A program made the translations under genes and the position numbers. The notes under the pieces were generated by a model. It ran no database searches. It saw only the letters and a list, made by a program, of their open reading frames with translations, and had not been told where the DNA came from. This document shows positions 8,040 through 25,769 of a stretch of DNA of 64,000 nt, one piece after another. How positions within the stretch are numbered: the stretch's first letter is position 1; every line of letters begins with the position of its first letter. This DNA is from a virus (Duplodnaviria > Caudoviricetes), in IMG/VR virus record IMGVR_UViG_3300021387_000661, positions 224,001-288,000 of that record; one strand, given 5' to 3'.

Positions 8040-10165
8040 TGGAAGATTTCATCAAATCATTAAGAATTTTTGAGAAGTATTGTGATGATTATCACAAGAA
8101 ATACCCATTCTGCTGTGACCATGACATCATTGTGTTCAATGGTGCCGGAAAGAATGATGTGTCACTTGAAGACATTGCTGAATTACATGAACTTGGATGG
8201 GATCCTTATGAAGATTTTGGATTCTATTCATTTAGATATGGAAGTAATTAATATGAATATTAAAGAGATATATAATATAATCAAATTTATTAGGAAGAGT
8301 AATTCTTGCCTAATTCTCAGAAATGATTTACAGTTAGGTTCATTTGGTTATCTTGATGATACTATGATGAAATTTCATGATTATATTATGAAAACTTCAA
8401 TTAAAAAATAATGAAACACACTATCACAGAATTTAAGGAATGGCCAAATGGTCTTGAACTGTGTTATCATGACTGGGTGGTGAAAGCATCCAAGAATGAA
8501 ATCACAGAGAAACTGGGTTTTGGACCGACAAAGGTCTATGAAGATAAGGACTGCACCTATCAGTGGAATTGTCTTCTGAATGGTAAATACTATTTTACCT
8601 TGTATGATATGAGTTATGATGAGACTCCTGGTGATGATGATGTGATTGAGTATCATATAGGGTTTTCAGATAAGTATGATGACATACACCATTTCTTCCC
8701 AGATTCAATTGAAGCACTTGATATGATAGAATCTCTTAGAGAAAGAGATTTTGATGTTGACCATTCAGAAACCTGGAAGAATTTCCATAATGATGGGATA
8801 TTAGACCAGATAGAGAGTTATATCAAACAGCAAATGATATTGAAGTAATATGAACAATAGCAAGAATTTATTTGACCTGGCAATGGATTGGTACAGAAGT
8901 GGCGATTCTGGAAAGAAGGCAGCTGCTCTTGACCTGTTCCCGGAAAATATGCTCAAAAAAGAAATTGAGGTATACAGGAAAAGGGATGAGAAAAAAAGAG
9001 TCAAGTTGAGGGAAGAGAACCTACAGAAGATGCTTGAAAGATGTAAAAAACTTTTTCATATTGGTGATGTCATTCAAAGTGATGACGGTACAGATTATCT
9101 TCCCAATCTCATCATCAGTGAACCCAGGATTCAAAAAGTGGAATATCTTCCTTTCTGTGTTGAAAGCAGTTGGAGATATGAAGACTCTGAAAAGAAAACC
9201 ATTGTAGTTGATACTGTGAGACTTTATATGAATAAACCACTGGAAAGAAAAAGTAAGGTCTGTCTGGAACAACTTCTTTATTATATGGATAAGCCAAAGG
9301 ATGATGTGTTCAGGAAAAATGGATTCATTGATCTGAAAGAATATGCAAAGAAACAGATTGAAAAAAAGAATAACGAACTGAAGGACCTCAAGGCAAGGGA
9401 ACAAAGAGCGCAGAAAGATTTGAGTGATATTCAAATGGATATTGCAGTCCTTGAAGACTATGACCCCAATGAGTTGACTTCTAAAAAGATAAATGAGATT
9501 TTGAAAAATGTCACAGAGACTCATTAACATACTCCCAAAGATTCCACAATATGAAGACATTCCATATGCAGGTGATTTAGAATGTCCTAAATGTGGAAAG
9601 ACTGGATTCTTTGACTATAACTGGAATCCAAAGCATGAAAAACCCAAGCTGGTAGGATGGTGTGACACAAACATAGGAAAGATGGGTGTGTTTGAATGTA
9701 CCTGTGGTCAGAGATACAGATTTCATTGTACTATTGGGACCTGGATTGCAGATGATGATGAGTTTGATATGTATCTTTACTATAAGGCAAAGGAATGTAC
9801 CAACTGGGAAGAGATTAAAAACAACTTGGTAACTAATGGAAAGGATAATTGCAGCAGCATATAAACTCAAACCAGAATATATCTGTAAGAAGGGGTCTGT
9901 CCTGAAGATAGGTACAAGAGAACTGGATGACATCTACCTATGCAGGATTGGAAGACATCATGCAGAGATACTACACATCTTTGGTGACCAGGTTGACCAC
10001 AAAACATCTGGGTTCTACACATCCTATGGTAGATATGTTGACAGGAAGGAAGCAGCCAGGATTGCAATAGAATCAGGGCAAATACAGAAGTGTCATTATT
10101 TTGGAGGCGAACAACTTGATTCCAGTGATATCTTTGATTTGGATTATGATGGGAATATGTTATGA
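8039..10165 (+). CDS. Run of small hypothetical phage proteins (8039-8251, 8411-8848, 8850-9527, 9508-9864, 9836-10165)
   Basis: Abutting or overlapping + strand ORFs, no recognisable motifs. Confidence 0.6.
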
Positions 10166-10611
10166 AACTGATTGAATTTGGATCAAGACATTCTTTCTAT
10201 GAGTGGTTTCGCAGGTGTGACAGAAGTGACAACTATCCTTTGATCAATTTCAACTATATACATTGCTGGGAAGAAGACACACATATTTACAGGTGTGTTG
10301 AAAAGGGAAAGGATGTTGGTGTGATATTCATCTCCTGTTGTTATCCAGGTGAGATGTGGATTGATTTGTTTGAAGTCAAGAAAGGAAAGCACAGAACTGG
10401 TATTGGAACAAAGATGTTCAGACTCTTGATGGAGAAACACACACCACTTTATGTCAAACTTGAATGTGTTGAGGAAGAAGACAAAGAAAAAGAAGCGCAT
10501 CATTTCTGGAGAAAGATGGGATTTCATAAGACATATGACAGGACAGTATTGGGTGATGCATTTGTAAAGACATATACAAAGAAATATTGGAAGAATTATG
10601 ACAAACTATAG
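10162..10611 (+). CDS. GNAT acetyltransferase
   Basis: HRTGIGTKM acetyl-CoA motif A; AHHFWRKMGF motif B. Confidence 0.8.
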   Translation: MKLIEFGSRHSFYEWFRRCDRSDNYPLINFNYIHCWEEDTHIYRCVEKGKDVGVIFISCCYPGEMWIDLFEVKKGKHRTGIGTKMFRLLMEKHTPLYVKLECVEEEDKEKEAHHFWRKMGFHKTYDRTVLGDAFVKTYTKKYWKNYDKL

Positions 10612-11050
10612 CGAACATATATCTGAAGAACTGGCCAGGAAACTTCTTGACTGGGGTTATCCCCTATTAAGTTATGCTCCTGGTACATATGATGGCGCTC
10701 CTTGTTTTGATATTCCAGGACCTGATGAACCTGGTTGGGCAGATGGTGACAGATACCAGATTCCCACATATGGTGAGGTGTTTGACTGGTTCTCAAGGGT
10801 AAAAGGTATTGTCATCACCCTTGAACCATTCCACACTTTTGCATTAAAAGGTCAGATAGGATATACCTGGAAGATAAACTATGTAGACCCTGAATTTGGT
10901 CTTGTATTGAGGACAGAAGAAAATGAATACCAATCAGGAGATGGATTTGGTGGTTCATTTAAACTCACTGCTGACGAAGCGATAAAGTCCGCAATGACTC
11001 TTGGTAAAAAGAAAGAGGAATATATTGAAGTAAACATTGATGAATTATAG
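10598..11050 (+). CDS. Hypothetical protein (paralog of 46132-46599)
   Basis: Shared PTY.EV.DWF motif. Confidence 0.65.
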   Translation: MTNYSEHISEELARKLLDWGYPLLSYAPGTYDGAPCFDIPGPDEPGWADGDRYQIPTYGEVFDWFSRVKGIVITLEPFHTFALKGQIGYTWKINYVDPEFGLVLRTEENEYQSGDGFGGSFKLTADEAIKSAMTLGKKKEEYIEVNIDEL

Positions 11051-11382
11051 TTATGGAAATTATTAAAGACTTGAATCCAGAAACCAGGAAATACAAATTC
11101 ATTCACTGGGGGTGTTGTGAGTTTACAGCCCTTGAAAATGAATTCAAATGGACTGCTGGACAATATAATGAGACAACTGCAAGTGTAGTTTGTCCAAAGT
11201 GTGGGAAACAGTTTTATCAAGATCCAGAAGAGATTAAACCAGAAACACCATCATTTGATGATTGGCCAAAGGTAACAAACTGTCCAAAGAATTGTAAGAT
11301 ATGTCAAGCCAAATGTTTATACAGGAAGGAGAAGTATAATGATTATGTGTCTCCAAAAGATTAATTTTTTTGTTATATTTAA

Positions 11383-11427
11383 TTTACATAAATACTTTAG
11401 AAAGTCAAAAATCAATTTACATAAATA
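11383..11427 (+). promoter_or_regulatory. Tandem TTTACATAAATA boxes (T4-late-promoter-like) ahead of leader 1
   Basis: Two copies here and two at 18651-18687; resembles TATAAATA. Confidence 0.6.
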
Positions 11428-11431
11428 TAGT

Positions 11432-11503
11432 ATGATGACATTAAATAACATATCAAATAGGAAATCCGATTTAAGAAAATTGGATTCTTTTGGTGTGGTA
11501 TAA
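11432..11503 (+). CDS. Leader peptide 1 (MMTLNNISNRKSDLRKLDSFGVV)
   Basis: 23-codon uORF forming a long hairpin; its 3' end is complementary to the downstream terminator arm. Confidence 0.75.
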   Translation: MMTLNNISNRKSDLRKLDSFGVV

Positions 11504-11531
11504 TGTCAATAAGATAACAAGCATATCATCT

Positions 11532-11567
11532 AAAACCACACCTTTGAAAAAAGATGTGGTTTTTTTT
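11532..11567 (+). terminator. Attenuator terminator 1
   Basis: AAAACCACACCTT / AAGATGTGGTTTT stem followed by T-run. Confidence 0.8.
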
Positions 11568-11576
11568 GATAAAATA

Positions 11577-11608
11577 TTTGGAAGTTTAAAAAAAAGTTGT
11601 TATATTTG
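11577..11608 (+). promoter_or_regulatory. Bacteroidota primary-sigma promoter (-33 TTTG, -7 TATATTTG); further copies near 15010, 17255, 19374, 24785, 47308, 50490, 57182, 59480, 62021
   Basis: Matches the Bacteroides TTTG / TAnnTTTG consensus at about 20-nt spacing, always intergenic. Confidence 0.85.
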
Positions 11609-11757
11609 TAGTGTTGAAAGTTCATTAAAATAAAGCCAATCCGCCCAGTCGGAAAAGTAAGATTATGGAAACATCCATGTGGGATGGTTTACGAATCATC
11701 AACACCGTCGATTCGGGACTTCTGAAATAAAAAAGTGGTACTTGACTTAAATTGATT

Positions 11758-11830
11758 GCAACCTTGGCGCAGTGGCTAGCGCAACTGACTTTTAATCAGT
11801 GGGTCTCGGGTTCGAATCCCGAAGGTTGCA
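11758..11830 (+). tRNA. tRNA-Lys(TTT)
   Basis: Cloverleaf; ACTGA ctTTTaa TCAGT. Confidence 0.92.
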
Positions 11831-12027
11831 CACAAAACATAAATTTATTTTGATATTTGAAAAATTTATGTTATATTTGTAATACACGTACCCAGGTTGA
11901 GATAAATTTTGCAAGAATTTATAATATAATTACTGATTCCCTGGGTTTTAAAATCCACAATGGCAGATGCGCACAGTCCCGGAGTGGTTGAGTGAGGAGG
12001 ACTTGCAATAACCTCCAAACAAAAGGA

Positions 12028-12103
12028 AGTCTTGTAGTTTAATGGTAGAATGCCTGCCTCGAAAGCAGGAGATGGATGCAGGGTTCGAATCCCCCCAAGA
12101 CAA
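12028..12103 (+). tRNA. Atypical tRNA, anticodon CGA (Ser-like)
   Basis: CCTGC ctCGAaa GCAGG; GGTTCGAATCC; first pair mismatched, odd variable region. Confidence 0.6.
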
Positions 12104-12127
12104 CAAAGTTAGTTCATTGAAAATATT

Positions 12128-12293
12128 GCCCTGGTGGTGGAATGGTAGACACGAGGGACTTAATTAGCAGAGTAAACTGTCTTAAAAAATCTTGTTTGGA
12201 AAATATAGGAACTTTGACAGGTTCAAATCCTGTTTCCAGACCAATCCCTTGGCCTGCAAGGCCTTGCGGGTTCGACTCCCGCCCGGGGCACCA
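12128..12293 (+). tRNA. tRNA-Leu(TAA) interrupted by 79-nt insert (12164-12242)
   Basis: Leu-type D and variable arms; removing the insert gives AGGGA ctTAAaa TCCCT; encoded CCA. Confidence 0.85.
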
Positions 12294-12355
12294 ACATAGT
12301 TGATTCTGACTGTTGTCAGACTTGAGGTTAATGACAGGACCTTCAACTATTAAAT

Positions 12356-12434
12356 GCGGGTGTATCGCCACTGTCTTATACACAGTCATTAACAGCGTAA
12401 TTGGTGTATGGGGGTTCAAGTCCCTCCACCCGTA
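12356..12434 (+). tRNA. D-armless tRNA-Ile(TAT) with long variable region
   Basis: GCGGGTG/CACCCGT acceptor; ACTGT ctTATac ACAGT; normal T arm. Confidence 0.7.
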
Positions 12435-12629
12435 CAAGCTTATTTGAAACAGCACTGGTACAAGGATCCATACCAGTAAAGATGAGATGGTAGCGCTGAA
12501 GTCTACGAACCTTAACAGGAAGTATCCGGATTCAAACTCCTGTCCTGTGTTACGGAACCAGTCTGGGTCACCAGGGTTTAATTGGGATGGAAACACCCAA
12601 GGAAGAGAAACCACCTTATGCTGTTATAT

Positions 12630-12701
12630 GCTTCCATAGGTCAACGGATAGACTGACTCTCCCCTAAAGAGTAGATACATGTTCAATTCATGTTGGGAGT
12701 A
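12630..12701 (+). tRNA. tRNA-Arg(CCT)
   Basis: ACTCT ccCCTaa AGAGT (C33). Confidence 0.8.
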
Positions 12702-12713
12702 CAAAACATAAAT

Positions 12714-12787
12714 GGCCCCTTAGCTCAGCGGATCAGAGCAACAGCCTTCTAAGCTGTGGGTCCTGCGTTCGAATCGCAGAGGGGTCA
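12714..12787 (+). tRNA. tRNA-Arg(TCT)
   Basis: ACAGC ctTCTaa GCTGT. Confidence 0.92.
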
Positions 12788-12807
12788 CAAAAAAAGTTTA
12801 AAAGATA

Positions 12808-12834
12808 ATGAGACAGTATAAACATAAACAGTAG
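12808..12834 (+). CDS. Leader peptide 3 (MRQYKHKQ) upstream of two tRNA-Lys(TTT)
   Basis: A-rich initiation context, two AAA codons, followed by mutually exclusive helices. Confidence 0.6.
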   Translation: MRQYKHKQ

Positions 12835-12885
12835 TTGTGTTGGTATCATCCAGAAAGATGAGACCAACCAAGTCATATATGGAAA

Positions 12886-12960
12886 GGTCTCGTGGCGCAA
12901 CTGGATGAGCGCACCTGTCTTTTAAACAGGGTGTTATGGGTTCGAGTCCCATCGGGACCA
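12886..12960 (+). tRNA. tRNA-Lys(TTT)
   Basis: CCTGT ctTTTaa ACAGG. Confidence 0.9.
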
Positions 12961-12969
12961 CAAGGTATT

Positions 12970-13042
12970 GGCCTTGTAGCTTAGATGGTAGAGCACCACC
13001 CTTTTAAGGTGGGAGTCGTGGGTTCGAGCCCCACCGGGGTCA
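12970..13042 (+). tRNA. tRNA-Lys(TTT)
   Basis: CCACC ctTTTaa GGTGG. Confidence 0.9.
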
Positions 13043-13267
13043 CAAAGATTAAAGTTTGAAATATATGGGTGGCTTGCATGCAGTTCTTGATAAGTCAGAT
13101 ATAGTACTTACTGATACTGTCTTGAACCAGAGTAAAAAGACCGGTACCTGATTGCAATAAGTTCCCACCCACCCTTTACCTGACAGGTCGAGCGTGATAT
13201 GGTCGCCTGTATTCACCAGACGTGGAGAAGAGACATTGAAACTCTGTCAGGTTTTTAATAGATTATT

Positions 13268-13624
13268 ATGGAAAAGAAACCAAAGATAAAGTGGAAGAAT
13301 TTTAAAATCTGGATCAAAGACCAGTTCAAGAGGAAGACCTGGTTCAGAAACTTTTTCATCACTGGGAATGCCTGGGGAGGGTTCAGTATCAACTCTCACA
13401 TCAACCAACATACAGGTGAACCAAAGATAACATACAATCATCTTGAATCCGCCCAGAAGGCTGCTGACAAGATGGGACAGAAACACAACACACACTTCAG
13501 TGTTTACAAGTGTCTTTACTGTGATGGTTATCATATTGGAAAGAACAGGGAGAACAAGACAGATTATGACAAGAAGGTAGTTACAAATGTTGAAGTAAAA
13601 GACAAGACTTTAATACTTAAATAA
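13268..13624 (+). CDS. Hypothetical basic protein with YKCxxCxGYHIG zinc motif
   Basis: ORF translation. Confidence 0.7.
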   Translation: MEKKPKIKWKNFKIWIKDQFKRKTWFRNFFITGNAWGGFSINSHINQHTGEPKITYNHLESAQKAADKMGQKHNTHFSVYKCLYCDGYHIGKNRENKTDYDKKVVTNVEVKDKTLILK

Positions 13625-13625
13625 G

Positions 13626-14078
13626 ATGAACACACTTGAAAATACAATTCAGAAGGATCTGGTTCAGGCAATGAAGAACCATCAGGAACACACTGTTGCA
13701 GCATTGAGGTCTGTTAAGACTGCCATTATGGAAGTGAAGACCGCTGCCAATGGTAAGAAGGATTTGGAAGATGGTGACATTGTGAAGATCATCCAGAAGT
13801 TAGTTAAGCAAAGGAAGGAGAGTATGGACATCTATTCCCAGGCAGGTAGGCATGAACTTGCAGACAATGAGCAGCAGGAGATGTTTGTGTTGATGAACTA
13901 TCTTCCAAAGATGCTCACTGAATCAGAGGTGGAGGAAATTGTTGTGAAGACGATCGCAGACCTTGGTGCAACCTCAATGAAAGATATGGGAAAGGTGATG
14001 GGATTCATCAATAAGACTTATGCTGGACAGGTGGATGGTTCTATGGTATCAAGAATTGTTAAATCTAAATTAGGATAA
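13626..14078 (+). CDS. yqeY: GatB/YqeY domain protein
   Basis: AMK..LRSVK, KLVKQRKES..Y..AGR.ELA..E, YLPK, DMGKVMG. Confidence 0.9.
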   Translation: MNTLENTIQKDLVQAMKNHQEHTVAALRSVKTAIMEVKTAANGKKDLEDGDIVKIIQKLVKQRKESMDIYSQAGRHELADNEQQEMFVLMNYLPKMLTESEVEEIVVKTIADLGATSMKDMGKVMGFINKTYAGQVDGSMVSRIVKSKLG

Positions 14079-14491
14079 TATGGCAAAGTTTGTTGTTTAT
14101 GCTCATGACAAGACTGATGTAGAATCAAATCTCATCTATGTATGTACCTGTGACACCAAAAATATGGCAAAGAGTATTACAAGTGCTATGAGGTTCAGGG
14201 ATTCCGGTGGAAGGAATGATGGGTCGGGTTTATATGATTATTATGTTAGAAAAGAAGATTGGATAGTATGAAAACCTGGATTATAGTTTTAGCAATTGTA
14301 TTTGTTGTTTTAAAGTTAGTTCAGCGGTTTCTTGCAAACTATATCAGAAATGACAGATTGGAAAGTGTAAAATACTACTTTCTTGATGGTGCAACAACAC
14401 TTGGGGTGATACATGGACTTGTTTCTTTATTTTGTATATTGGTTGGTTGTACAGATTTGATTTTATTGTTTATTTATTTGTTGAATTTAGT

Positions 14492-14983
14492 ATGAAGAAT
14501 ATAGCATTGGTTGCCCATGATGGAAGAAAGAAAGAATTGATGGAGTGGGTAAGGTATAATTGGGAAACTCTTTCAAAGCATAATTTATATGCAACTGGTA
14601 CAACTGGAAAATTGATTAGTGGTATTGAAGTGGATCTTGGATTTGGTGGTGGAGAAGGAGTTTATAGGAGACAGATTGAGTATCCTTTGAGGAGTAAAGT
14701 AACATGTCTCAAATCTGGTCCACTTGGTGGAGATCAACAGATTGGAGCAATGATTGCAGAAGGAAAGATAGATGTATTGATATTTTTCTGTGACAATCTC
14801 ATTACACAAGGTCACCAGACAGATGTGTCTGCACTTACCAGACTTGCATCACTTTATAATATTGCATTTGCAACAAACAGGACAACTGCTGATATGATTC
14901 TTACATCACCATTGTTCAATGATGAAAATTATAAGATGATTGTTCCTGATGTGATTGAGAAATATAAAAACAGACAAATTTAA
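14492..14983 (+). CDS. mgsA: Methylglyoxal synthase
   Basis: IALVAHD, ATGTTG, SGPLGGDQQIG, H.TDV.AL.R, ATN.TAD. Confidence 0.95.
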   Translation: MKNIALVAHDGRKKELMEWVRYNWETLSKHNLYATGTTGKLISGIEVDLGFGGGEGVYRRQIEYPLRSKVTCLKSGPLGGDQQIGAMIAEGKIDVLIFFCDNLITQGHQTDVSALTRLASLYNIAFATNRTTADMILTSPLFNDENYKMIVPDVIEKYKNRQI

Positions 14984-15083
14984 TAAAAACATAAATATTT
15001 TTATCTGGGATTTGGAAAATAAAATATTTTTTGTTATATTTGTATTGTTATTCAGAAAGAGTTCTTTGAATTTAGAAATATAT

Positions 15084-15420
15084 AGGTCTTGTTGATGCTT
15101 TCAGGAAAGACTGTAGGACAAGGGTTCGAGTCCCTTCAGGTCCACAAATAAACACACTTAAGTCATCGGAGTACGCCTCTGTAATGATTGAGGAATTCAC
15201 TAAACGGTGTGGAAAATCAGGTTGAGTAGGCTTCGTATCTCAACCAACTTTGGGCCTGCCTGGTTTTGACTGCTTTTGAGTATGGAGAGTGGAGAGGTCT
15301 ATTGCCAATAACTGGCAAAAACAACGGTTTCTCTGTAAACTTTGGCCCTGTCGCACAGACAGCTACTCCAAAGGCTATGGTTGCTTTCGCTTAATTGCAG
15401 GCTTGAACATAGTAGATCTT
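15084..15420 (+). ncRNA. ssrA: Circularly permuted (two-piece) tmRNA; tag frame 15314-15394
   Basis: T-arm/acceptor 3' strand (GGAC..GGGTTCGAGTCCC..CAGGTCCA, ends 15144) precedes the 5' strand GGGCCTG..TTTTGAC (15252); G3.U70; resume context ATAACT-GGC; outer ends approximate. Confidence 0.85.
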
Positions 15421-15505
15421 TCACCAGGTGGATGATCCAGAGGGTTTCTCATTCCATCTTTCCAAATAAGATGGATACTTTGAAAGTTCTTTATAATAAA
15501 TATTT

Positions 15506-15681
15506 GGCCAGGTAGCTCAGCTGGTTTAGAGCAGCGGACTGTATAAGGAGTGGTTTACCGAAACAAACCAATCTGGTATAGTTTAATGGCAAAATGCCTC
15601 GGGTCGTAGATGATGGTGGTTCGATTCCACCTACCAGATCTAATCCGCGGGTCGTGGGTTCGAGTCCCTCCCTGGCCGCCA
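15506..15681 (+). tRNA. tRNA-Asn(GTT) interrupted by 98-nt insert (15543-15640) containing a tRNA-like fold
   Basis: Removing the insert gives GCGGA ctGTTaa TCCGC; G73; CCA. Confidence 0.85.
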
Positions 15682-15683
15682 AA

Positions 15684-15763
15684 GTACATAGGATGTAAGT
15701 GCACACATATGTTGGGTTCGGGTATGATTAACCCACAGAGGTTTGAGTCCTCTCTATGTACCA
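15684..15763 (+). ncRNA. tRNA-like RNA without a canonical anticodon loop
   Basis: GTACATAG/CTATGTAC stem, T-arm AGAGG tttgagt CCTCT. Confidence 0.5.
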
Positions 15764-15800
15764 AATATAAGTTCTTTGAAAAATAAAAACTTCATACAAT

Positions 15801-16071
15801 GGAGGAGTGGGAGAGTGGTTTATTCCAGCGGTCTTGTTAATTCGAGTGCTTCCAGAGGAATCTGGAAAGTAGAATTCCCCTAATTCGGTGGAACCTTAAC
15901 AGGTAATGCTGATGGTAATACCGAGCCAATGTTTAAAGACAGTGTGTAGAGACTTTACAGGGAACATCCAGAACGGATGAAGATAAAGTCCAGACCACAA
16001 TATGAAAGTAATGTGTGTAAGGAAAACCGCCGCTCCGAAAGGGGCCGTCGGTTCGAATCCGGCCTCCTCCG
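15801..16071 (+). tRNA. tRNA-Ser(TGA) with group I intron
   Basis: Spliced loop GCGGT ctTGAaa ACCGC; long variable arm; G73. Confidence 0.88.
15836..16021 (+). mobile_element. Group I intron (IC3-like, ORF-less, 186 nt)
   Basis: 5' exon ends in U, intron ends in G; P/Q/R/S-like AATTCGGTGGAAC, AATACCGAGC, GTAGAGACT, AAGATAAAGTCC. Confidence 0.88.
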
Positions 16072-16137
16072 CTAAATATACAAATTTCAAAAAAGTTTGT
16101 TATATTTATTAAGGTTTTGTTATGTGTTTGTTTGTTT

Positions 16138-16203
16138 AAAGATTCATACCGCAACAATTAAAAGCTCAAACTGATAATTTGATTACTTTCTTTTGAATCT
16201 TGT
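16138..16203 (+). repeat. AAAGAnnCATACCGCAACA...nnTCTTGT hairpin element (second copy 18481-18546)
   Basis: Two copies with compensatory closing stems (AAGATTC/GAATCTT; AAGAACC/GGTTCTT). Confidence 0.7.
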
Positions 16204-16259
16204 TTTCTTTAACAAACATAAATTTAACCAGGCTTTTATAAACAATTAATAATTAAAGT

Positions 16260-16886
16260 ATGAAGAAATTTTTAGTATTTCTTATGAGTATTATGCTCAT
16301 GATTGGTGTGAGTGCATGTACTTGCTCCCAGCAGAAGAAAACTTCTGAACTAAAGGCTGGTGAACTGGTTGTTGAGAATGTCATCTCCCTTGACCGTCAG
16401 GCAATGAACCTTGCACATGGTGGTAATTACAGGTGGTTTGAGACTGGTGTTCAGCTCAAGAACTTCCTTGATGAGGAAAATGATGGTACCATTGATTTGG
16501 TTGTCAATGTTTTCCAGGTAGTTGAGGAGTATGATTCTACAAGTTTTGATACCTTTGTTTACAAGTATCAGCACTTCTCTGATGGTTCATTTAATGAGGA
16601 AGGTGTTCATGGTTTCTGGGTTGAAGATTACCCTCTTGAGAATGAAGCAATCAAGGTAACCTTCAAGGAAGCTTTTGAAAAGGTCCAGGAAGTTAATCTC
16701 CCTAAACCTCACACCCGTCAGGTAGTATTGAGGAAGCAGGTTGGTCCTGTTGAGGCAAATCCTCAGTGGATTTTTGGTAACCTCCATTCACAGATTTATG
16801 TTGATGCTGTGACTGGTGCAGTTTCAAAGGACAATCCTGCATTCAATGGTCTCAATCTTGGTACACCTCTTGGTGAATGGCCTTAA
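16260..16886 (+). CDS. Putative lipoprotein
   Basis: Hydrophobic signal peptide with lipobox-like VSAC. Confidence 0.7.
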   Translation: MKKFLVFLMSIMLMIGVSACTCSQQKKTSELKAGELVVENVISLDRQAMNLAHGGNYRWFETGVQLKNFLDEENDGTIDLVVNVFQVVEEYDSTSFDTFVYKYQHFSDGSFNEEGVHGFWVEDYPLENEAIKVTFKEAFEKVQEVNLPKPHTRQVVLRKQVGPVEANPQWIFGNLHSQIYVDAVTGAVSKDNPAFNGLNLGTPLGEWP

Positions 16887-17097
16887 TAGAAATCGGTGAG
16901 GTAGTTAGTTTTGCACTCTCGTCATAAATAAAATGCAGACTTGGCAATCTGGAACAGACAGATATTACTATGATGTGACAAGGAAGTGGAATACTTGCGC
17001 CACGAGATAATATCAGATGGAGGAAAGAGGAAGGGTTCTTCGTAAAAGTTGCCCAATAGGGAATGGAGGTTCGAGTCCTCCCATCATAGCCAAACAT

Positions 17098-17172
17098 TGC
17101 GGGGTAGACTGGAGAGGTTCCAGCCCGGTCTCATAAGCCGGTCCACGTGGGTTCGAATCCCACCCACCGCTA
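17098..17172 (+). tRNA. tRNA-Met(CAT), initiator-like
   Basis: CCGGT ctCATaa GCCGG; 1:72 mismatch. Confidence 0.82.
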
Positions 17173-17321
17173 CTAAATGCCAGTATAAGACAGTATATAT
17201 GTAAGTTCAACTCTTACTATTGGCGCAAAAAAATACAAAATATTTTCATAAATATTTGGATATTTCAAATTTTTTTGTTATATTTGTATTGTTAAGTTCT
17301 TTGATAAATATTGTAAAAATA

Positions 17322-18395
17322 TAAGGGTGGGTTTCTCATCCTTCCTGTATCCTTCGGGAGAAAGGAGAAAGATAACCAGTGAATACATAAGCTGGGAAAG
17401 TCAGTGTGGCGCAATCTTGCCCCTGGCGGAGGAGTTTTCCTCTCTACAAGAAAACCAAGGCAGTCAGCATATCCTGGAATGGCAGGACACTGTGAAAGGG
17501 ATATGCGGGGGTTCTTACCAAGTCTCCTTGAGTGGTAACACTGACAAGTGCTGTTTTGCTTCCAGACAAGAAGATTACCAGTCTTATGGTTTGGATGACC
17601 AAAGTTTATTGATGTCCAAAAGGAATTACCAGATTCCTCTAACAGGTGGTGCTGAGATCAGAAATGGTTGGATGTTAGAATGAGTAGAATGAGTAACACA
17701 GCGGTGTGTGAAAATAGAAAGGCGATGTATCTAACCCTCTCAAAAGGAGGCAGGATAGCAAGGGCAACCTCGTCTTTCAAATGGTAGAGTGCTAAATGAT
17801 TCATTAAAGATTATGACCAAAATGATCAATAAAAAATTATTAAGCAAGCAAAAGTGTTGCCCACACTACAGGACAATATGGTTATGCTTCTGTGATATGA
17901 AGCCTTATGGAACTCGCAAGGTGAAGTAAGAGTATTGTAAGTAGGGACAATGCAAGAGGAGGCATCCTCTTAACTCGGCAGAGGTCTTTGGCTTGAACAC
18001 ATCTATATAATGTAGTGTAGTGACTGTGGTAGTCTTGGTGGAAACACCATAAATCCATCCATATCCTCCTTACCAGTAGCGATGCTGGTGTGTATAAACT
18101 CTGGGCGACCAGGGCTTGTCCTGAAAGGGAAGAGAACAGGAGGCGATTAGGGTCAACACTCAGCCCCAATCAAACAAAAATTTATTCAGTGTCAGTAACC
18201 AGTCTGGTATGGAAGAGCGAGACTTCCCCGAATAACAAAAGTCATTTCATAAAGGTACAGAACCTCTGCGAAATAGAACCACAAGGAGGGTTTTCCAAGG
18301 CCAGGGACTTGACTTGAAACATACTTTCTTGGGTTCTAAAGGAAGTTGAAGAGTGAGTTTGCATTCAGTCTATGAGTGGTTTTATCTCTTCATCC
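17322..18395 (+). ncRNA. Large structured ncRNA (about 1.07 kb), possibly GOLLD-like
   Basis: No credible ORF, raised GC, many short hairpins, own promoter plus boxA, abuts tRNA-Asp; family assigned from size and context only. Confidence 0.5.
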
Positions 18396-18397
18396 AT

Positions 18398-18472
18398 AGT
18401 GCGTTAGTTCAGCCTGGTTAGAATGCCACACTGTCACTGTGGAGGTCACGGGTCCGAATCCCGTACGCACTG
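18398..18472 (+). tRNA. tRNA-Asp(GTC)
   Basis: CCACA ctGTCac TGTGG. Confidence 0.92.
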
Positions 18473-18706
18473 CAAATGGTAAAGAACCATACCGCAACAT
18501 TTGAATGAAATACATTTTTGGGTTATGTAGCAATTTTGGTTCTTGTTTTTCCTTGTTTAGCAAAACAAGGTGGTGGAGTTGGGTGGAAACACTGTCCTCT
18601 GTGAGTGGTAATCTCACATAAATAACTTACCATTTATTTTGAAATTTTAATTTACATAAATATATTAGAAAGTAATTTACATAAATACTTTAAAAGAATA
18701 AAAATT

Positions 18707-18829
18707 ATGATGACATTGCATACACATATGGTATTTGCTGCTATTGCAGGTAAGCCAGGTTGCTACCGTTTTTGGGAACAACTCGGACAGAAGGGTGTGT
18801 GTATGTCATCTGAAAATGAAAAACAATAA
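18707..18829 (+). CDS. Leader peptide 2 (MMTLHTHMVFAAIAGKPGCYRFWEQLGQKGVCMSSENEKQ)
   Basis: 40-codon uORF; same ATG ATG ACA TT start and tandem upstream boxes as leader 1; alternative helices with the terminator. Confidence 0.75.
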   Translation: MMTLHTHMVFAAIAGKPGCYRFWEQLGQKGVCMSSENEKQ

Positions 18830-18883
18830 GTGGAGACCATTATAGGAGAAAGGTTAAAACTTAAACAAATATAGAAGAACGAC

Positions 18884-18923
18884 ATCTCACACAAATCACA
18901 AAAAGGTTTATGTGAGATTTTTT
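18884..18923 (+). terminator. Attenuator terminator 2
   Basis: ATCTCACA...TGTGAGAT stem plus T-run, 10 nt before tRNA-Pro. Confidence 0.78.
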
Positions 18924-18932
18924 AATTTATAT

Positions 18933-19008
18933 TGGGTAGTGCGGTAGTTGGTCACCGGCTGCATTTGGGATGCAGACATTCACGCAGGTTCGAGTCCTGT
19001 CTACCCAA
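18933..19008 (+). tRNA. tRNA-Pro(TGG)
   Basis: CTGCA ttTGGga TGCAG. Confidence 0.88.
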
Positions 19009-19018
19009 CAAAGTGAAT

Positions 19019-19093
19019 GGGCTGGGTAGTGTAATCTGGAAGCACATCACTCTGGCAGAGTGAAGGATGGGGTTCAAATCCCCCCTGTGTCCA
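19019..19093 (+). tRNA. tRNA-Ala(GGC), non-canonical acceptor stem
   Basis: TCACT ctGGCag AGTGA; G3.U70. Confidence 0.7.
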
Positions 19094-19115
19094 CAAAGAT
19101 AATAAAACAAAGTTT

Positions 19116-19358
19116 ATGGAGACACTCAAACAGATTGTAAAAGGTAGTGCAAAATTGGACTGCATCAAGAGTGGTGGTGTTGCTGAATACATCATTACAT
19201 CAGAAAGCAACAACAAATATATGTTGGAAATAGATTTATCTGATAAAGTTGATTGTGGAGAGAGTGCATCATTTATGCCTTTTTATGAGAAAGCTATAAT
19301 TCTTATGCGATGGATTCGTCGTGCGATGGATAAAGGTGAATTAATTGAACTTTGTTAA
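19116..19358 (+). CDS. Hypothetical protein
   Basis: 80-aa ORF with AT-rich leader. Confidence 0.7.
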   Translation: METLKQIVKGSAKLDCIKSGGVAEYIITSESNNKYMLEIDLSDKVDCGESASFMPFYEKAIILMRWIRRAMDKGELIELC

Positions 19359-19420
19359 AAAAATACTAAAAGATTTGGAAGTTTCAAATATTTTTGTTAT
19401 CTTTGCAGTAGAAAATAAAT

Positions 19421-19495
19421 GCTGGGATATCTGCTAGTGGTCCAGGCGATGTGCCTTTCAAGCATGTGACACGGGTTCGAATCCCGTTCCCAGTA
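19421..19495 (+). tRNA. tRNA-Glu(TTC), atypical
   Basis: TGTGC ctTTCaa GCATG. Confidence 0.72.
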
Positions 19496-19654
19496 CAAAG
19501 GAGTGAAGGGAAAATCCAACCAACACTTCACATAGAGCGAAACAGAACCTGATAATGATTCCTGCTGAAGGATAAGGCAAGGTGAAGATAGGGGTTCAAT
19601 GAGGTTGAAATGATGCATGCTCAAAGTAAACAATATATAATGCTCGACAATTAT

Positions 19655-19732
19655 GGAGCTGTCGTATAGGTGGTTATTGTACAATGGACTGAAAATCCAT
19701 AGGCAGTGGTTCAACTCCACTCGGCTCCACCA
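19655..19732 (+). tRNA. tRNA-Phe(GAA)
   Basis: ATGGA ctGAAaa TCCAT; CCA. Confidence 0.85.
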
Positions 19733-19940
19733 AGGTTTGGTGTAAGGTGACTTGCATTGATGAGAGTAAATGAAGATAGGATGAATGATCAACATCCAAA
19801 AAGAAATGAAATCATCTAAAGTCAAACCAATGAAATCATTACAGATACTAGTCAATGTAGTGAGGAAATTGCAGAGGCATTTAGCACACCTGTCTATGTC
19901 ACAGGTGATTCATAAGCAAGTAAAGTGAGACCTTGACCTC

Positions 19941-20022
19941 CGGGATGTGCTGGAACTGGTAGACAGACCAGACTAAGGATCTGGTGCTGCAAGGCGTGAG
20001 GGTTCGAGTCCCTCCATCCCGA
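19941..20022 (+). tRNA. tRNA-Leu(AAG)
   Basis: CCAGA ctAAGga TCTGG; Leu-type body. Confidence 0.85.
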
Positions 20023-20182
20023 CTTGATGTAAAAAGACGTTAAACCTTGTGGGAGTTAGTCTTCTCCCTTGTGGGATAATGGTGCCGGCATCATAGTAGA
20101 TTGCCAAGGAAACTGCCCGAGTCAGCGGGGTCTGAACAGTGGGGTTCGATACCCTGGGCACCATCAAAAAAGTTCTTTGATT

Positions 20183-20255
20183 GTCTCTGTAGCTCAATTG
20201 GTAGAGCACCTGACTCTTAATCAGGGGGTTCCGAGTTCGAGCCTCGGCAGGGACA
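20183..20255 (+). tRNA. tRNA-Lys(CTT)
   Basis: CCTGA ctCTTaa TCAGG. Confidence 0.92.
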
Positions 20256-20430
20256 CAAAACAAATGCCGGTTTATCACAGTATATTGGTGACTGTGGCTG
20301 CCCTGTACAGGTGGGTTTGACTTCAAGTGAAAGTATACAGCTCGAGACAATGTATATGAGTAAAGGTCAGATATGGGTTTGGTTCGATTCCCCCGATGGC
20401 ACAAAGTTCTTTGAATTGTTATATTTAAAT

Positions 20431-20507
20431 GGGCCGGGTAGTGTAAAGGTTTAGCACGTCACACTTGCACTGTGACAGAGGGGTTCGAATCCCACCTGTG
20501 TCCACCA
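20431..20507 (+). tRNA. tRNA-Ala(TGC), non-canonical acceptor stem
   Basis: TCACA ctTGCac TGTGA; G3.U70; CCA. Confidence 0.72.
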
Positions 20508-20608
20508 CTTATTACCATATTATCTTTCAGAGAAATGGTTGACTAAAACTCGCAGACTCATCCGGTAATTGGTTGTAAAAGTGCAGTTAAAGGTTAGATG
20601 AGTATTTT

Positions 20609-20682
20609 GGGCTTGCATGTACCAAGGTTGGCGGAACTCCCTTGCAAGGAGATCGTGGAGGGTTCGATTCCCTTCGGGTCCA
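20609..20682 (+). tRNA. tRNA-Ala(TGC), atypical D region
   Basis: CTCC ctTGCaa GGAG; G3.U70. Confidence 0.7.
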
Positions 20683-21118
20683 CAAAACAGGTGAAGTTGT
20701 CATACATATAAGCCTGTTTCACAAGTTCAGAAGGTGATGCATACACACTGACTTGTCGGCATATGAGAGTGTCGGAGACACACAGAAGTGGAAACCACAT
20801 TCAGGATTGAATTGAAGTGCAAATAGATTCTTTCTGTTAGGATGAAGGTCTGCCGGACACAAAGCTCGCCAGGAAGATTACCCTGGAAATACTTGGTTCG
20901 ACTCCAAGATATGCTACAAAATCACAGAGTGCCCAGAGCATTGAAGCATTGAAGGTATGATGCTTTTGAACAAGTTTGAACCCTGTAATCGAAAGAGGGC
21001 AATGCAGCAAGCAATACTTTGTGAGATAACAACTTTTCTATGGTATCATATAGAGGTTAGTATGGCGGTCATTCAGTGCTGCAACAGAGGTTCGATTCCT
21101 CTTACCATAGCAACATTT

Positions 21119-21210
21119 GGGTAGGTAACGGCGCTGGACTGTAAATCCAGTCTGAACACAAATTGTCGTATTGGCCTTGCAGTAAGGGGGTTCGAGTCCC
21201 TCCCTACCCA
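21119..21210 (+). tRNA. D-armless tRNA-Tyr(GTA) with long variable region
   Basis: GGGTAGG/CCTACCC; CTGGA ctGTAaa TCCAG. Confidence 0.7.
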
Positions 21211-21217
21211 CACAAAT

Positions 21218-21291
21218 GCGGAGTTAGTTCAACGGTAGAATGTCAGCCTTCCAAGCTGAATATGAGGGTTCGATTCCCTTACTCCGCTCCA
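21218..21291 (+). tRNA. tRNA-Gly(TCC)
   Basis: TCAGC ctTCCaa GCTGA; U73; CCA. Confidence 0.92.
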
Positions 21292-21376
21292 AACTGTGGG
21301 TGTAGTGTAATATTATAGATTCAGCACACAGGGGATACCCTGGAATGATGGTATGAAATCCATCCACTCATAACAT

Positions 21377-21451
21377 ACCGATGTAGCTCAGTTGGTGGAG
21401 AGCGACAGATTCATATCCTGTAGGTCATTGGTTCGAACCCAATCATCGGTA
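21377..21451 (+). tRNA. tRNA with CAT anticodon (Met or Ile2)
   Basis: ACAG a-ttCATat-c CTGT. Confidence 0.8.
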
Positions 21452-21464
21452 CATATAATTAAAA

Positions 21465-21635
21465 ATGATATTATGGATAACTGTGGGGCTAAAAGAGTAT
21501 CTGTTTAATGAGTGGAAATATAATGTACACAAAAGATACTTGAAATACTTTGATGAATGGTATGACAATCTTCTGGATTCCCAGAAAGAATTTTACAAGA
21601 GTTGGATGGAAGGGTATATGAGTCCATATCATTAG
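21465..21635 (+). CDS. Small hypothetical protein (56 aa, below ORF-track cut-off)
   Basis: MILWITVGLKEYLFNEWKYN...SPYH fills the gap between tRNAs. Confidence 0.55.
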   Translation: MILWITVGLKEYLFNEWKYNVHKRYLKYFDEWYDNLLDSQKEFYKSWMEGYMSPYH

Positions 21636-21664
21636 GTCTTTGAAATGTTGATTATGAATTATAT

Positions 21665-21755
21665 AGGTCGGTGGCCGAGTGGTTGAAGGCGGCGGTCTCC
21701 AAAACCGTTAGGATATTTTGAAAAATCCTCGAGGGTTCGAATCCTTCCCGGCCTG
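21665..21755 (+). tRNA. tRNA with CCA anticodon (Trp) and long variable arm
   Basis: GCGGT ctCCAaa ACCGT; AGGAT..ATCCT variable hairpin; G73. Confidence 0.8.
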
Positions 21756-21763
21756 CTTAAGAT

Positions 21764-21835
21764 TGAGGTATGGTGTAATGGCCAGCACCTTGGATTTTGG
21801 TTCCAATAGTCCAGGTTCGAATCCTGGTACCTCAA
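21764..21835 (+). tRNA. tRNA-Gln(TTG)
   Basis: TTGGA ttTTGgt TCCAA. Confidence 0.9.
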
Positions 21836-21843
21836 CAAAAAAT

Positions 21844-21917
21844 GTCGGGTTGGCCGAGCGGTCAGGTCCTGGTCTGCAAAACCAGTTAGATTGGTTCGAC
21901 TCCAATACCCGACTCCA
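21844..21917 (+). tRNA. tRNA-Cys(GCA)
   Basis: CTGGT ctGCAaa ACCAG; U73; CCA. Confidence 0.92.
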
Positions 21918-21920
21918 TTT

Positions 21921-21992
21921 GCCCCTGTAGTGTAATGGATCGCACACAGCACTACGGATGCTTTAGAGAGGGTTCGAGTCCTTCCAGGGGTA
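21921..21992 (+). tRNA. tRNA-Arg(ACG)
   Basis: AGCA ctACGga TGCT. Confidence 0.88.
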
Positions 21993-22113
21993 CAAAATTA
22001 TAAATATAATAGATGGTCTTTGACGAAAGAATCGTATCGCAGTTGAGCTTTGTCCTCACTGACAGAAACGTAAGTCTGGGGTGTACTACAAGCCTGTGAT
22101 TGTAGTATTTTTT

Positions 22114-22185
22114 GCGGCATTCGTATAATGGTTATTATACCAGCTTGCCATGCTGGGGACGGGAGTTCGATTCTCCCATGCCGCT
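22114..22185 (+). tRNA. tRNA-Gly(GCC)
   Basis: CCAGC ttGCCat GCTGG. Confidence 0.9.
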
Positions 22186-22193
22186 CTCAATAT

Positions 22194-22270
22194 GGTGACT
22201 GTGGCCGAGTGGTTTAGGCGCAACACTGTGGATGTTGTTTACGTCAGTTCGAGTCTGACCAGTCACCCCA
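22194..22270 (+). tRNA. tRNA-His(GTG) with encoded G-1
   Basis: CAACA ctGTGga TGTTG; G-1:C73; CCA. Confidence 0.92.
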
Positions 22271-22280
22271 AAAATAAAGT

Positions 22281-22988
22281 TATGGAAAAGGTAGTAAGAT
22301 TTTTTAAACAAGATAATAAGTGGTATGCAGATATTCCAAACCACACTCTTGAAGAGAATGAGATGGTAATGGGTGCAGATATTGCTCTTGAGTATCTTGC
22401 AGAAGAGAGGAAAGAGTTACACATCACATTCACAGATGAGAATCCAGGATGGAATGTTCCTCTGGCACTCACTCTGAAAGATCATGATGATGAGGGTGGA
22501 TACTATGATGTATCAGGAATTCTCTTTATGGATTTTATGCTCACTTATGGTAAAGAGTTCATTGGAGTCAAACCACAGGTTTGGATTTGTAATGTTACAC
22601 ATGATGTATTTGGTGAACATCCAGAACACATTTACATCACAAAGATTGAATCAAAACATTAGTTATGGACAAAGATTTTAAGAAGAGGTTCTTAATGAAC
22701 CGTGATGAGACAGGTAGGTTCATTGTCAAGTCAATGAAGACTGGTAAATCCTATTATGTTGAAGCAATTGATGGTGACGAAAGGACTATCTGGGGAGATG
22801 TGGATCCAGTAACAAAAAAGTTGACAGGTAGTTATGGTGACAAGTACAAGGGAAGTATCAGACCTGAACAGTCACTTATTACCAATGAGAATGGGTTTGA
22901 CAAGATTCATACTCTTGGTCCTGGGGAATCACCATTGGATTATATTAACAGGATTGATGATGAGTACTTTGAAAAGATGAGTAAATAG
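22281..22988 (+). CDS. Two hypothetical proteins (22281-22662, 22665-22988)
   Basis: First ORF most likely starts at MEKVVRFF, after tRNA-His. Confidence 0.65.
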
Positions 22989-22996
22989 TTTTTTGG

Positions 22997-23078
22997 GGGA
23001 GAGTCGCATAGTGGCAATTGCAAGGGACTGTAAATCCCTCGCCTTCGGGCTTCAGAGGTTCGAGTCCTCTCTCTCCCA
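22997..23078 (+). tRNA. tRNA-Tyr(GTA)
   Basis: AGGGA ctGTAaa TCCCT; long variable arm. Confidence 0.92.
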
Positions 23079-23193
23079 CAGCCTATCAACCAAGTTGTTG
23101 AAAAGGGTAACGGATGCGCAGCGATTGCGGATCTTGCAAGTTTTTCGCCAGGGTTTCCTTGGTCTCTTTGAGATGAATAAATCTTGGATTTAT

Positions 23194-23275
23194 GGGGGTG
23201 TGGTGGAATGTAGACACCCCAGACTTAGGATCTGGTGCCAGTAATGGCGTGAGGGTTCGAGTCCCTCCATCCCCA
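23194..23275 (+). tRNA. tRNA-Leu(TAG)
   Basis: CCAGA ctTAGga TCTGG. Confidence 0.9.
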
Positions 23276-23410
23276 CACTGACACTACTCTATGAGTAGAT
23301 GTCTTGGTTGGTCACAATACTGTAATTGTGATAGTCCTCTGGGACTTAAAAGAGTTGCAGTGATGCAATCTGTCAAGGTCAGTCTGGAACCAGTTAATCC
23401 AGACATTTAT

Positions 23411-23493
23411 GCAGCAGTGGTGGAATGGTAGACACGCTACTTTGAGGGGGTAGTCTGGGCAACTGGGTGTGAGTTCGAGTCTCACCTGCCGCA
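23411..23493 (+). tRNA. tRNA-Leu(GAG)
   Basis: CTACT ttGAGgg GGTAG. Confidence 0.88.
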
Positions 23494-23501
23494 CAAAACA
23501 T

Positions 23502-23574
23502 AGCGGTATAGCGCAATTGATAGAGCATCAGATTCTGGCTCTGAAGGTTGGGAGTTTGAACCTCTCTACCGCTA
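23502..23574 (+). tRNA. tRNA-Gln(CTG)
   Basis: TCAGA ttCTGgc TCTGA. Confidence 0.8.
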
Positions 23575-23676
23575 CAAACAAAAAAGGGTGGGTCAACCAG
23601 GTAAAGGCAGGGTAAGTCTCTGGTTCTTCTCTGATGATGGCGCAAGTAGTCAGAGTTTCTTAAATTACCCATATAT

Positions 23677-23751
23677 GGGTGTGTAACTCAGTTGGTACAG
23701 AGTACCTGTCTGATACACAGGAAGTCGATGGTTCAAGTCCATCCACACCCA
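23677..23751 (+). tRNA. tRNA-Ile(GAT)
   Basis: CCTGT ctGATac ACAGG. Confidence 0.88.
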
Positions 23752-23760
23752 CACAAATAT

Positions 23761-23835
23761 GGTCCTGTCGTCTAGTCTGGCCAAGGACATCACCCTCTCA
23801 AGGTGGAGACCCGGGTTCAAATCCCAGTGGGACTA
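23761..23835 (+). tRNA. tRNA-Glu(CTC)
   Basis: TCACC ctCTCaa GGTGG. Confidence 0.88.
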
Positions 23836-25445: not shown

Positions 25446-25447
25446 AT

Positions 25448-25743: not shown

Positions 25744-25769
25744 GTATTAATTTAAAAATAGGTTTAACA

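Follow-up and report, generated by a model that had tools for sequence, protein, structure and literature searches.

How does a phage that carries some 40 tRNA genes control their transcription, if it does so at all? To our knowledge, phage tRNA arrays are usually seen as constitutive add-ons that serve codon usage or defence evasion, and the control of their expression is largely unknown. The window analyzed here, a stretch of 64,000 nucleotides, represents bases 224001-288000 of a 344,746-bp virus record (34.7% G+C, estimated 94% complete), which derives from a 345-kb gut/rumen phage. Its tRNA genes, about 40, and a permuted tmRNA are all encoded on the + strand, from 11758 to 31110, and two attenuator-like elements separate the tRNA genes into block 1 (11758-18473) and block 2, which runs from 18933 onward. 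The first of these, attenuator 1 (11432-11567), is likely to be a leader-peptide, i.e., ribosome-mediated, transcription attenuator that gates late-promoter transcription into tRNA block 1, an interpretation founded on sequence analysis and folding models without any experiment. A blastn search of positions 9000-13100 against GenBank phages found matches at the level of tRNAs only and no relative. The features discussed below are the following.

11381-11394, + strand: distal late-promoter box AATTTACATAAATA, from which a transcript would have a 5' UTR of about 32 nt
11414-11427, + strand: proximal late-promoter box, 4 nt before the ATG
11432-11503, + strand: leader ORF, 23 codons plus TAA, peptide MMTLNNISNRKSDLRKLDSFGVV
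11436-11472, + strand: strand 1, the 5' arm of the 1:2 hairpin (MFE fold, covariation)
11477-11508, + strand: strand 2, the 3' arm of the 1:2 hairpin, containing GGTGTGGT (11492-99)
11532-11567, + strand: intrinsic terminator 3:4, with a hairpin at 11532-11563 (-13.2 kcal/mol); strand 3 includes ACCACACC
11577-11609, + strand: host-type promoter (Bacteroidetes sigma-A-like), TTTG-N21-TATATTTG, which would bypass the attenuator
11758-18473, + strand: tRNA block 1, with Lys-UUU (three genes), Arg-CCU, Arg-UCU, Leu-UAA, Asn-GUU, Ser-UGA, a CAU tRNA, Asp-GUC and two atypical genes
11758-18473, + strand: other genes of block 1, namely a permuted tmRNA, a YqeY-like gene, an MGS-like gene and a GOLLD-like RNA
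18649-18925, + strand: attenuator 2, before tRNA block 2, with two boxes, a 40-codon leader, a hairpin and a terminator

The whole attenuator 1 element is modular and about 190 nt long. Codons 1-12 of its leader read ATG ATG ACA TTA AAT AAC ATA TCA AAT AGG AAA TCC, and codons 13-23 with the stop read GAT TTA AGA AAA TTG GAT TCT TTT GGT GTG GTA TAA; codons 2 to about 15 form the sensing part, the FGVV tail is inside strand 2, and the stop codon (11501-03) marks the 5' edge of the outer-helix arm in strand 2. The MFE fold of 11425-11575 consists of a long imperfect hairpin (11436-11508) and then the terminator hairpin with a run of eight U (eight T in the DNA, 11560-67). Helix 1:2 has an outer segment, TGACATTA/TAATGTCA (11436-43 with 11501-08), a middle segment, CATATCAAA/TTTGGTGTG (11449-57 with 11489-97), and an inner segment, GGAA.TCCGATTT/AAATTGGA.TTCT. 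The energy of the fold is -43.8 kcal/mol as opposed to -21.5 +/- 3.4 for dinucleotide shuffles (z = -6.6), none of 200 shuffles being as good. The antiterminator 2:3 has 8 bp, as GGTGTGGT (11492-99) is the exact complement of ACCACACC (11535-42), and since the strand 2 bases of this duplex also belong to helix 1:2, the two pairings are mutually exclusive. This architecture had been proposed in an initial annotation made from the letters alone, and every feature that it placed in attenuator 1 is present, with all coordinates right: codons 4-19 of the ORF at 11432-11503 do encode only L, N, I, S, R, K and D, the three segments of helix 1:2 are all found in the MFE fold, the strands proposed for the antiterminator (11492-11499 with 11535-11542) are exact complements, and 3:4, taken as the terminator, has its hairpin at 11532-11563 and its eight T.

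The spacer between hairpin 1:2 and the terminator (11513-11531) carries a motif, AGCGTATCATC, that is conserved in homologues. The UCAUC of this motif and the GAUGA of the start codons are complementary and pair with each other in some folds, so that the motif may serve in start-codon sequestration, or else be a pause or processing signal. A strong and covarying structure, together with a conserved spacer motif whose role is unknown, is also what an element acting as RNA alone could present, either in processing, stability or protein binding or as a small late RNA, the reading frame then being incidental. Rfam gives this idea no help, as a search of 11300-18950 with E up to 1 returned no leader-family, T-box or other cis-regulatory match, and further objections come from the reading frame and its codons, as described below.

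The two boxes in front of the leader are informative about the time at which it would be transcribed. The 14-mer AATTTACATAAATA has five copies in the genome, four of which lie at the two attenuators (11381-94, 11414-27, 18649-62 and 18674-87). The 8-mer CATAAATA is more enriched than any other in the 100 nt that precede long ORFs (52 of 295 genes, 15-fold), is typically located 15-35 nt before the ATG, and stands in front of the tail sheath, portal and head maturation protease genes. Because the boxes before the leader carry the motif of these structural and maturation genes, they are interpreted as late promoters. The late promoter consensus of phage T4 is TATAAATA, which CATAAATA matches at 7 of 8 positions, T4 having C instead of the first T; both motifs precede structural genes. 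Six other genes have their ATG 4-5 nt after CATAAATA (genome starts 198527, 258376, 263343, 342574, 72013 and 9957), which points to leaderless late mRNAs as a common feature of this phage, and since the proximal box is likewise 4 nt before the ATG, the leader 1 mRNA is probably leaderless or nearly so, with the reservation that start sites are inferred. One relative (L027) has the proximal box only. The absence of a Shine-Dalgarno-like motif at leader 1 is normal for this phage, as such a motif occurs in only 17 of 295 genes. A sigma-70-type reading of the boxes (TTTACA-18-AAAAAT) was rejected, as it would use the first box in one element and the second box in the other.

A second class of enriched upstream motifs, TTTGTTATATT, fits the Bacteroidetes consensus TTTG...TAnnTTTG and occurs just past the terminator (11577-11609) and at several sites inside block 1; the host-type motif GTTATATTTGTA is repeated before other RNA genes of the block, and the promoter is conserved in relatives. 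The first tRNA gene (11758) is 190 nt past the terminator, on the same strand and with no further terminator predicted in between, and the host-type promoter intervenes. With this promoter downstream and others inside the block, the attenuator can govern only transcripts that come from the late promoters, and their share of the tRNA output is unknown. The initial annotation had raised this very caveat, with a host-type promoter at 11577 that is indeed there (TTTG, 21 nt, TATATTTG), and had suggested that control may be confined to late transcripts, which fits the late-promoter boxes before the ORF. Two further late-promoter-like boxes, TATTTACATAAATA and TATTTTCATAAATA, occur at 27619-27632 and 17241-17254 without a leader ORF, directly before tRNA-Ala-UGC (27655) and the GOLLD-like RNA, respectively; thus, some RNA genes may have unregulated late expression.

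An ORF behind a late-promoter box is how real genes of this phage are arranged, and here a separate promoter follows the terminator, so that the locus could be no more than a small late gene for a 23-residue peptide with an ordinary terminator, in which the hairpin stabilizes the mRNA and no regulated read-through occurs. The first 16 residues are fairly conserved across relatives, as they would be in such a gene, and its terminator would simply be the structure that prevails at equilibrium in every state (see below). This reading has to be confronted with the codons of the leader and with its relatives.

When codons were assigned to tRNAs by plain wobble rules, codons 4-19 of leader 1 comprised 13 that are read by block 1 only, one shared codon (TTG), two Ser codons (TCC and TCT) covered by isotype only, and none that is read by block 2 only, while the tail TTT GGT GTG GTA consists of four block-2 codons. 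For comparison, 28% of the codons in the long ORFs of the genome are block-1-only and 54% are block-2-only. A stop-free window of 16 codons without any block-2-only codon was found at just four loci in the six frames of the 345-kb genome, leader 1 being one of them, and this result hardly depends on the ambiguous block-1 anticodons. In this genome, codon 3 of the leader, Thr ACA, is off-list. The initial annotation was right on both of its reservations about the match, i.e., that Thr ACA has no counterpart in the block and that the CGA tRNA has no TCG codon in the leader.

The isotypes that it assigned to block 1 (K, R, I, L, N, D, S and M) held for K, R, L, N, D and S, less so for the remaining two, as the CAU tRNA (17099-17171) is weak and the UAU (Ile) gene at 12356-12434 is atypical, with the anticodon loop CTTATAC and no alignment with the clear Ile-UAU genes of relatives. 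The unambiguous genes are the three Lys-UUU, Arg-CCU, Arg-UCU and Asp-GUC. Three others have insertions of 79-186 nt in the anticodon loop, which make the anticodon ambiguous by ARAGORN alone. Among these, 15506-15681 is Asn-GUU, as 76 of 78 exon positions are identical to the uninterrupted tRNA-Asn(GUU) of a relative; 12128-12293 is an interrupted tRNA with a long arm that aligns with the Leu-UAA of a relative; and 15801-16072 is an interrupted long-arm Ser tRNA with the anticodon UGA, or possibly GGA. Block 1 of the relatives has clean Asn-GUU, Leu-UAA, Ile-UAU, Ser-UGA, CAU and Asp-GUC genes.

Some other properties of the array deserve mention. Insertions of 79-186 nt in the anticodon loop occur in five tRNA genes of the window (12128-12293, 15506-15681, 15801-16072, 26751-26905 and 27753-27904); they are too short for group I introns, and the orthologues in relatives are uninterrupted. 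The insertion in Asn-GUU contains a tRNA-like sequence related to an odd tRNA at 12028-12104, a conserved tRNA-like gene of 77 nt without a long arm that follows the first tRNA-Lys. Homologues of this gene exist in relatives (L019:6587-6663, and also L016, L023, L024 and L037), and its predicted anticodon varies, being CGA here and AGA, ACA or unclear in the relatives. The permuted tmRNA (15053-15485, tag GKNNGFSVNFGPVAQTATPKAMVAFA) has its own host-type promoter at 15012-15044 and is kept in relatives, where the YqeY/GatB-like gene (13626-14078) and the gene with an MGS-like domain (14432-14983) of block 1 are syntenic. Finally, the match to GOLLD RNA (RF02032) at 17717-18166 on the + strand, which sits between the CAU tRNA and tRNA-Asp, scores 87.6 bits (E 2.9e-22), below the gathering score of 150.

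The same correspondence is found at the paralogous element. The ORF of attenuator 2 begins with ATGATGACATT, the same start as that of leader 1, its boxes precede tRNA-Pro at 18933, and a long hairpin encloses most of the ORF. Block 2 can read every one of codons 1-33 of leader 2, and 17 of the 18 block-2 isotypes are represented in codons 3-33; a window of 31 codons made of block-2 codons only occurs once in the six frames of the genome, and that is at leader 2. In a relative, the leader 2 of 38 codons is listed as an unannotated gene in public gene calling (L041:9516-9632 and L042:4801-4917).

If the structures of attenuator 1 form a switch, the position of the ribosome should decide among them, and this was modeled by folding the nascent RNA up to the terminator loop, i.e., before strand 4, with a mask of +/-15 nt around the A-site codon. 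Without a ribosome, helix 1:2 forms and strand 3 is free (paired with a probability of 0.00). With the A site at any of codons 2-13, strand 3 is predicted to pair with strand 2 (P 0.98-0.99); the probability that strand 3 is paired falls to 0.2-0.6 at codons 14-16 and to 0.02 or less from codon 17 to the stop, where the terminator is free to form. Thus, the co-transcriptional folding with a ribosome footprint that had been put forward as a check of the attenuator yields the antiterminator for stalls at codons 2-13 (P about 0.99). The sensing window obtained in this way coincides with the block-1 codons and leaves the off-list tail outside, in agreement with the earlier proposal that FGVV, which is encoded within strand 2, is the antiterminator strand that a terminating ribosome covers. 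A thermodynamic switch was considered and dropped, as the antiterminator never appears when the full-length RNA is folded at equilibrium with a stalled ribosome; the terminator is present in every stall state with a probability of 0.92 or more. Because the terminator wins at equilibrium on the full-length RNA, the switch can work only kinetically, as in the trp attenuator, in which the terminator is also favoured at equilibrium by established energetics. The masked nascent folding gave the same profile for all 16 homologues of attenuator 1, and so, in the folding model, which is not a measurement, every one of the 17 family members has 1:2, 2:3 and 3:4 structures that act as a kinetic switch. 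The measure used, namely whether strand 3 is paired, is uninformative on attenuator 2 owing to its long structured spacer, and no conclusion is drawn on the switch of the paralogue.

These homologues came from metagenomes. Both attenuators are present in the same places in two IMG/VR contigs of 153 and 411 kb, and a pattern scan of metagenomes recovered 16 true homologues of attenuator 1 along with two chance matches. The pattern required ATGATGAC, GGTGTG and ACCACACCTT and left the sensing region free; the invariance of these three motifs in the homologues is therefore no evidence. The terminator is present in all homologues, although its motif belonged to the search pattern. Exact matches to the double box in IMG/VR were discarded, as they were only AT-rich tandem repeats of unrelated giant-virus contigs and non-homologous. 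A search with a 208-aa protein of block 1 found one more distant phage (L022), which has scattered tRNAs and no comparable element, and the attenuator family appears to be restricted to one clade.

Within this family, indels notwithstanding, all 17 members retain an ORF of 23-24 codons that begins at the same start. The last third of leader 1 is frame-shifted in several of them (e.g., ...RKSGSSWCVL), and the stop codon nevertheless falls at the 5' edge of the 3' arm of the outer helix in all members, frame-shifted ones included. A C-terminal third that shifts frame while the RNA pairing and the position of the stop are kept is hard to reconcile with a gene maintained for its peptide. Conversely, a frame with a constant start and a structurally placed stop, preserved through indels, and a codon set that is near-unique in the genome and tracks the tRNA content argue against an RNA for which translation is incidental, so that this last reading is given very little credence.

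The pairings themselves covary. The outer helix appears as ACATTA/TAATGT, ACACTT/AAGTGT and ACACTCA/TGAGTGT in different members, and in a model-based alignment 91.8% of the cells pair; ten pairs of 1:2 have changed on both sides, as compared to 2.8 +/- 1.2 in shuffles (0 of 500) and to 1-5 when the partners were slid, and RNAalifold agrees on the covariation. The core of 2:3 was fixed by the search pattern and is uninformative, but its extension lies outside the pattern and covaries, as in GTTGAAG/CTTCAAC (L028), GTTGAGA/TCTCAAC (L036), GTTAA/TTAAC (L023) and GTTTT/AAAAC (L033). This extension had to be judged from the duplexes of each sequence, which range from -14.6 to -20.9 kcal/mol, as its columns cannot be aligned and a formal pair count is thus lacking. 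A covarying antiterminator is not something that a plain peptide gene accounts for.

The codons of the family extend the match seen in this genome. Of codons 4-16 in the 15 distinct leaders, 184 are on-list as opposed to 11 off-list, and the choice among synonyms is exclusive: AAA 24 times and AAG never, ATA 15 times and ATY never, AGR 30 times and CGN never, TCN 32 times and AGY never. Genome-wide, the share of these block-1-type codons is 54% for AAA, 30% for ATA, 88% for AGR and 70% for TCN. The family counts are not phylogenetically independent; still, Lys and Arg codons that newly arose in family leaders are always AAA and AGR. Codon 4 is CTY in four members, and off-list codons occur in L029 (Phe), L030 (Gly) and L038 (Tyr), where the matching tRNAs cannot be checked on the short contigs. 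The exclusive use of AAA, ATA, AGR and TCN is another property that a small peptide gene leaves unexplained.

Further support came from lineages in which the tRNA content has changed. In the L033 lineage, block 1 contains a tRNA-Phe(GAA) that is not an orthologue of the block-2 gene, and the usual Phe position of block 2 is empty over the approximately 5.3 kb visible before the contig ends. The leader 1 of L033 (...NRFSDFRK...) encodes Phe at its sensing codons 11 and 14, and the two Phe codons of its leader 2 are gone, one TTT having become ATT and the other, in a stretch that is otherwise conserved, CCA. The pattern is the opposite in the three lineages whose tRNA-Phe belongs to block 2: Phe is encoded twice in leader 2 and nowhere among the sensing codons of leader 1. 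Similarly, the Thr-UGU that L024 and L034 carry in block 1 goes with an additional ACA at codon 11. In these sequences, leader codons change together with tRNA content, as the attenuator hypothesis predicts and its rivals do not, although the events are few, with one lineage for Phe and one for Thr. The shift of Phe codons between leaders alongside the tRNA-Phe gene is the last of the observations that a peptide gene does not account for, and that explanation is accordingly regarded as improbable.

The same lineages bear on a subtler possibility, namely that the element is an attenuator that reports general translation capacity or amino-acid supply, the codons for phage tRNAs being there only to keep the leader translatable as host tRNAs run out. 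Stalling does report charged tRNA, so that amino-acid starvation would trigger the switch as well, and late in infection all phage genes need phage tRNAs. Translatability alone would, however, permit the codons of either block, whereas the leaders are partitioned strictly by block and are re-partitioned when a tRNA gene changes block. A general sensor is for these reasons doubtful, if somewhat less so than a mere peptide gene. The interpretation that remains best supported, in silico only, is the one first suggested for the locus, an attenuator whose sensing codons match the tRNAs encoded downstream; the ORF, the structures, the partition of codons and tRNAs, the conservation, the covariation and the concerted change of leader codons and tRNA genes can all be read from the genomes.

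If this attenuator operates as proposed, transcripts late in infection would start at the CATAAATA boxes, and the 23-codon leader would be translated from or near their 5' end. When the tRNAs for AAA, AAY, AGR, AUA, UUR, GAY and UCN are plentiful, the ribosome would reach the stop codon at the base of 1:2 and cover strand 2, with the result that terminator 3:4 would form, ending transcription at about 11565. Should one of those tRNAs be scarce, the ribosome would stall within codons 2 to about 15 and strand 2 would be free to pair with strand 3 (GGUGUGGU with ACCACACC); no terminator would form, and the polymerase would enter the tRNA block. In the absence of translation, 1:2 would form and termination would follow. 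The outcome would be negative feedback on the supply of exactly the tRNAs that are encoded downstream. Attenuator 2 would exert the same control on the second tRNA block, and early in infection the host-type promoters past the terminator would express the block free of attenuator control. The transcription start sites, the translation of the ORF, the termination and the read-through upon stalling are inferences, as no transcript, ribosome or termination data exist.

A broader proposal is more tentative and, on present evidence, rather unlikely, although it is given somewhat more weight than the alternatives above: the two attenuators would make up a demand-driven tRNA homeostat with two channels, in which the codon inventory of each leader evolves in concert with the tRNA genes behind it, and this homeostat would double as a counter-defence sensor. 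Host tRNAs such as those for Lys, Asn, Asp and Arg are the usual targets of anticodon nucleases. If these were cut or depleted late in infection, stalling on the leader would turn on the phage replacements.

The element resembles several known systems without being equivalent to any of them. Like the multivalent attenuators of the enterobacterial amino-acid operons ilvGMEDA (ilvL), ilvBN (ivbL) and thr (thrL), it has a short leader in which several amino acids are represented by regulatory codons, helices 1:2, 2:3 and 3:4 that exclude one another, an intrinsic terminator, and a stop codon at which a ribosome that completes the leader blocks the antiterminator. Those attenuators control biosynthetic enzymes, whereas the phage element precedes tRNA genes; they have runs of one to three amino acids, whereas the phage leader samples seven to eight isotypes, mostly once or twice each. 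Unlike them, it chooses at the codon level (AAA and not AAG, AGR and not CGN), begins at a late promoter, is probably leaderless, and has neither sequence similarity to them nor a match to an Rfam leader. The E. coli trp attenuator (trpL) shares a terminator that is more stable than the antiterminator, a decision made by the position of the ribosome when strand 3 emerges, and termination in the absence of translation, but it senses a single amino acid and controls enzyme genes, and in the phage the sensing region is the whole 5' arm of a long hairpin. The attenuator of E. coli pheST (pheM leader) likewise controls part of the translation machinery in response to how much charged tRNA is available; it does so with a run of Phe codons and controls a synthetase gene, not the tRNA genes themselves. 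T-box riboswitches also choose between terminator and antiterminator in response to the state of tRNA, but they bind one uncharged tRNA directly and need no ORF, whereas the phage element needs a ribosome and samples many codons. A search of the full-text literature found no report of leader-peptide attenuation before any tRNA gene, in cells or viruses; E. coli pheV, considered as a possible precedent, was set aside, as its upstream region has no Phe-rich leader.

As the leaders have already been rewritten in nature when tRNA-Phe changed block, the element seems to be programmable, and it might serve as a natural part for sensing how available chosen tRNAs are. A signature with which other large phages can be searched for similar controls is offered as well, i.e., a short ORF, ahead of a terminator, in which the set of codons equals that of the downstream anticodons. 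For the phage itself, the analysis suggests that the tRNAs of the block are probably made on demand and, if this is true, there would be direct feedback from the speed of decoding to the synthesis of tRNA.
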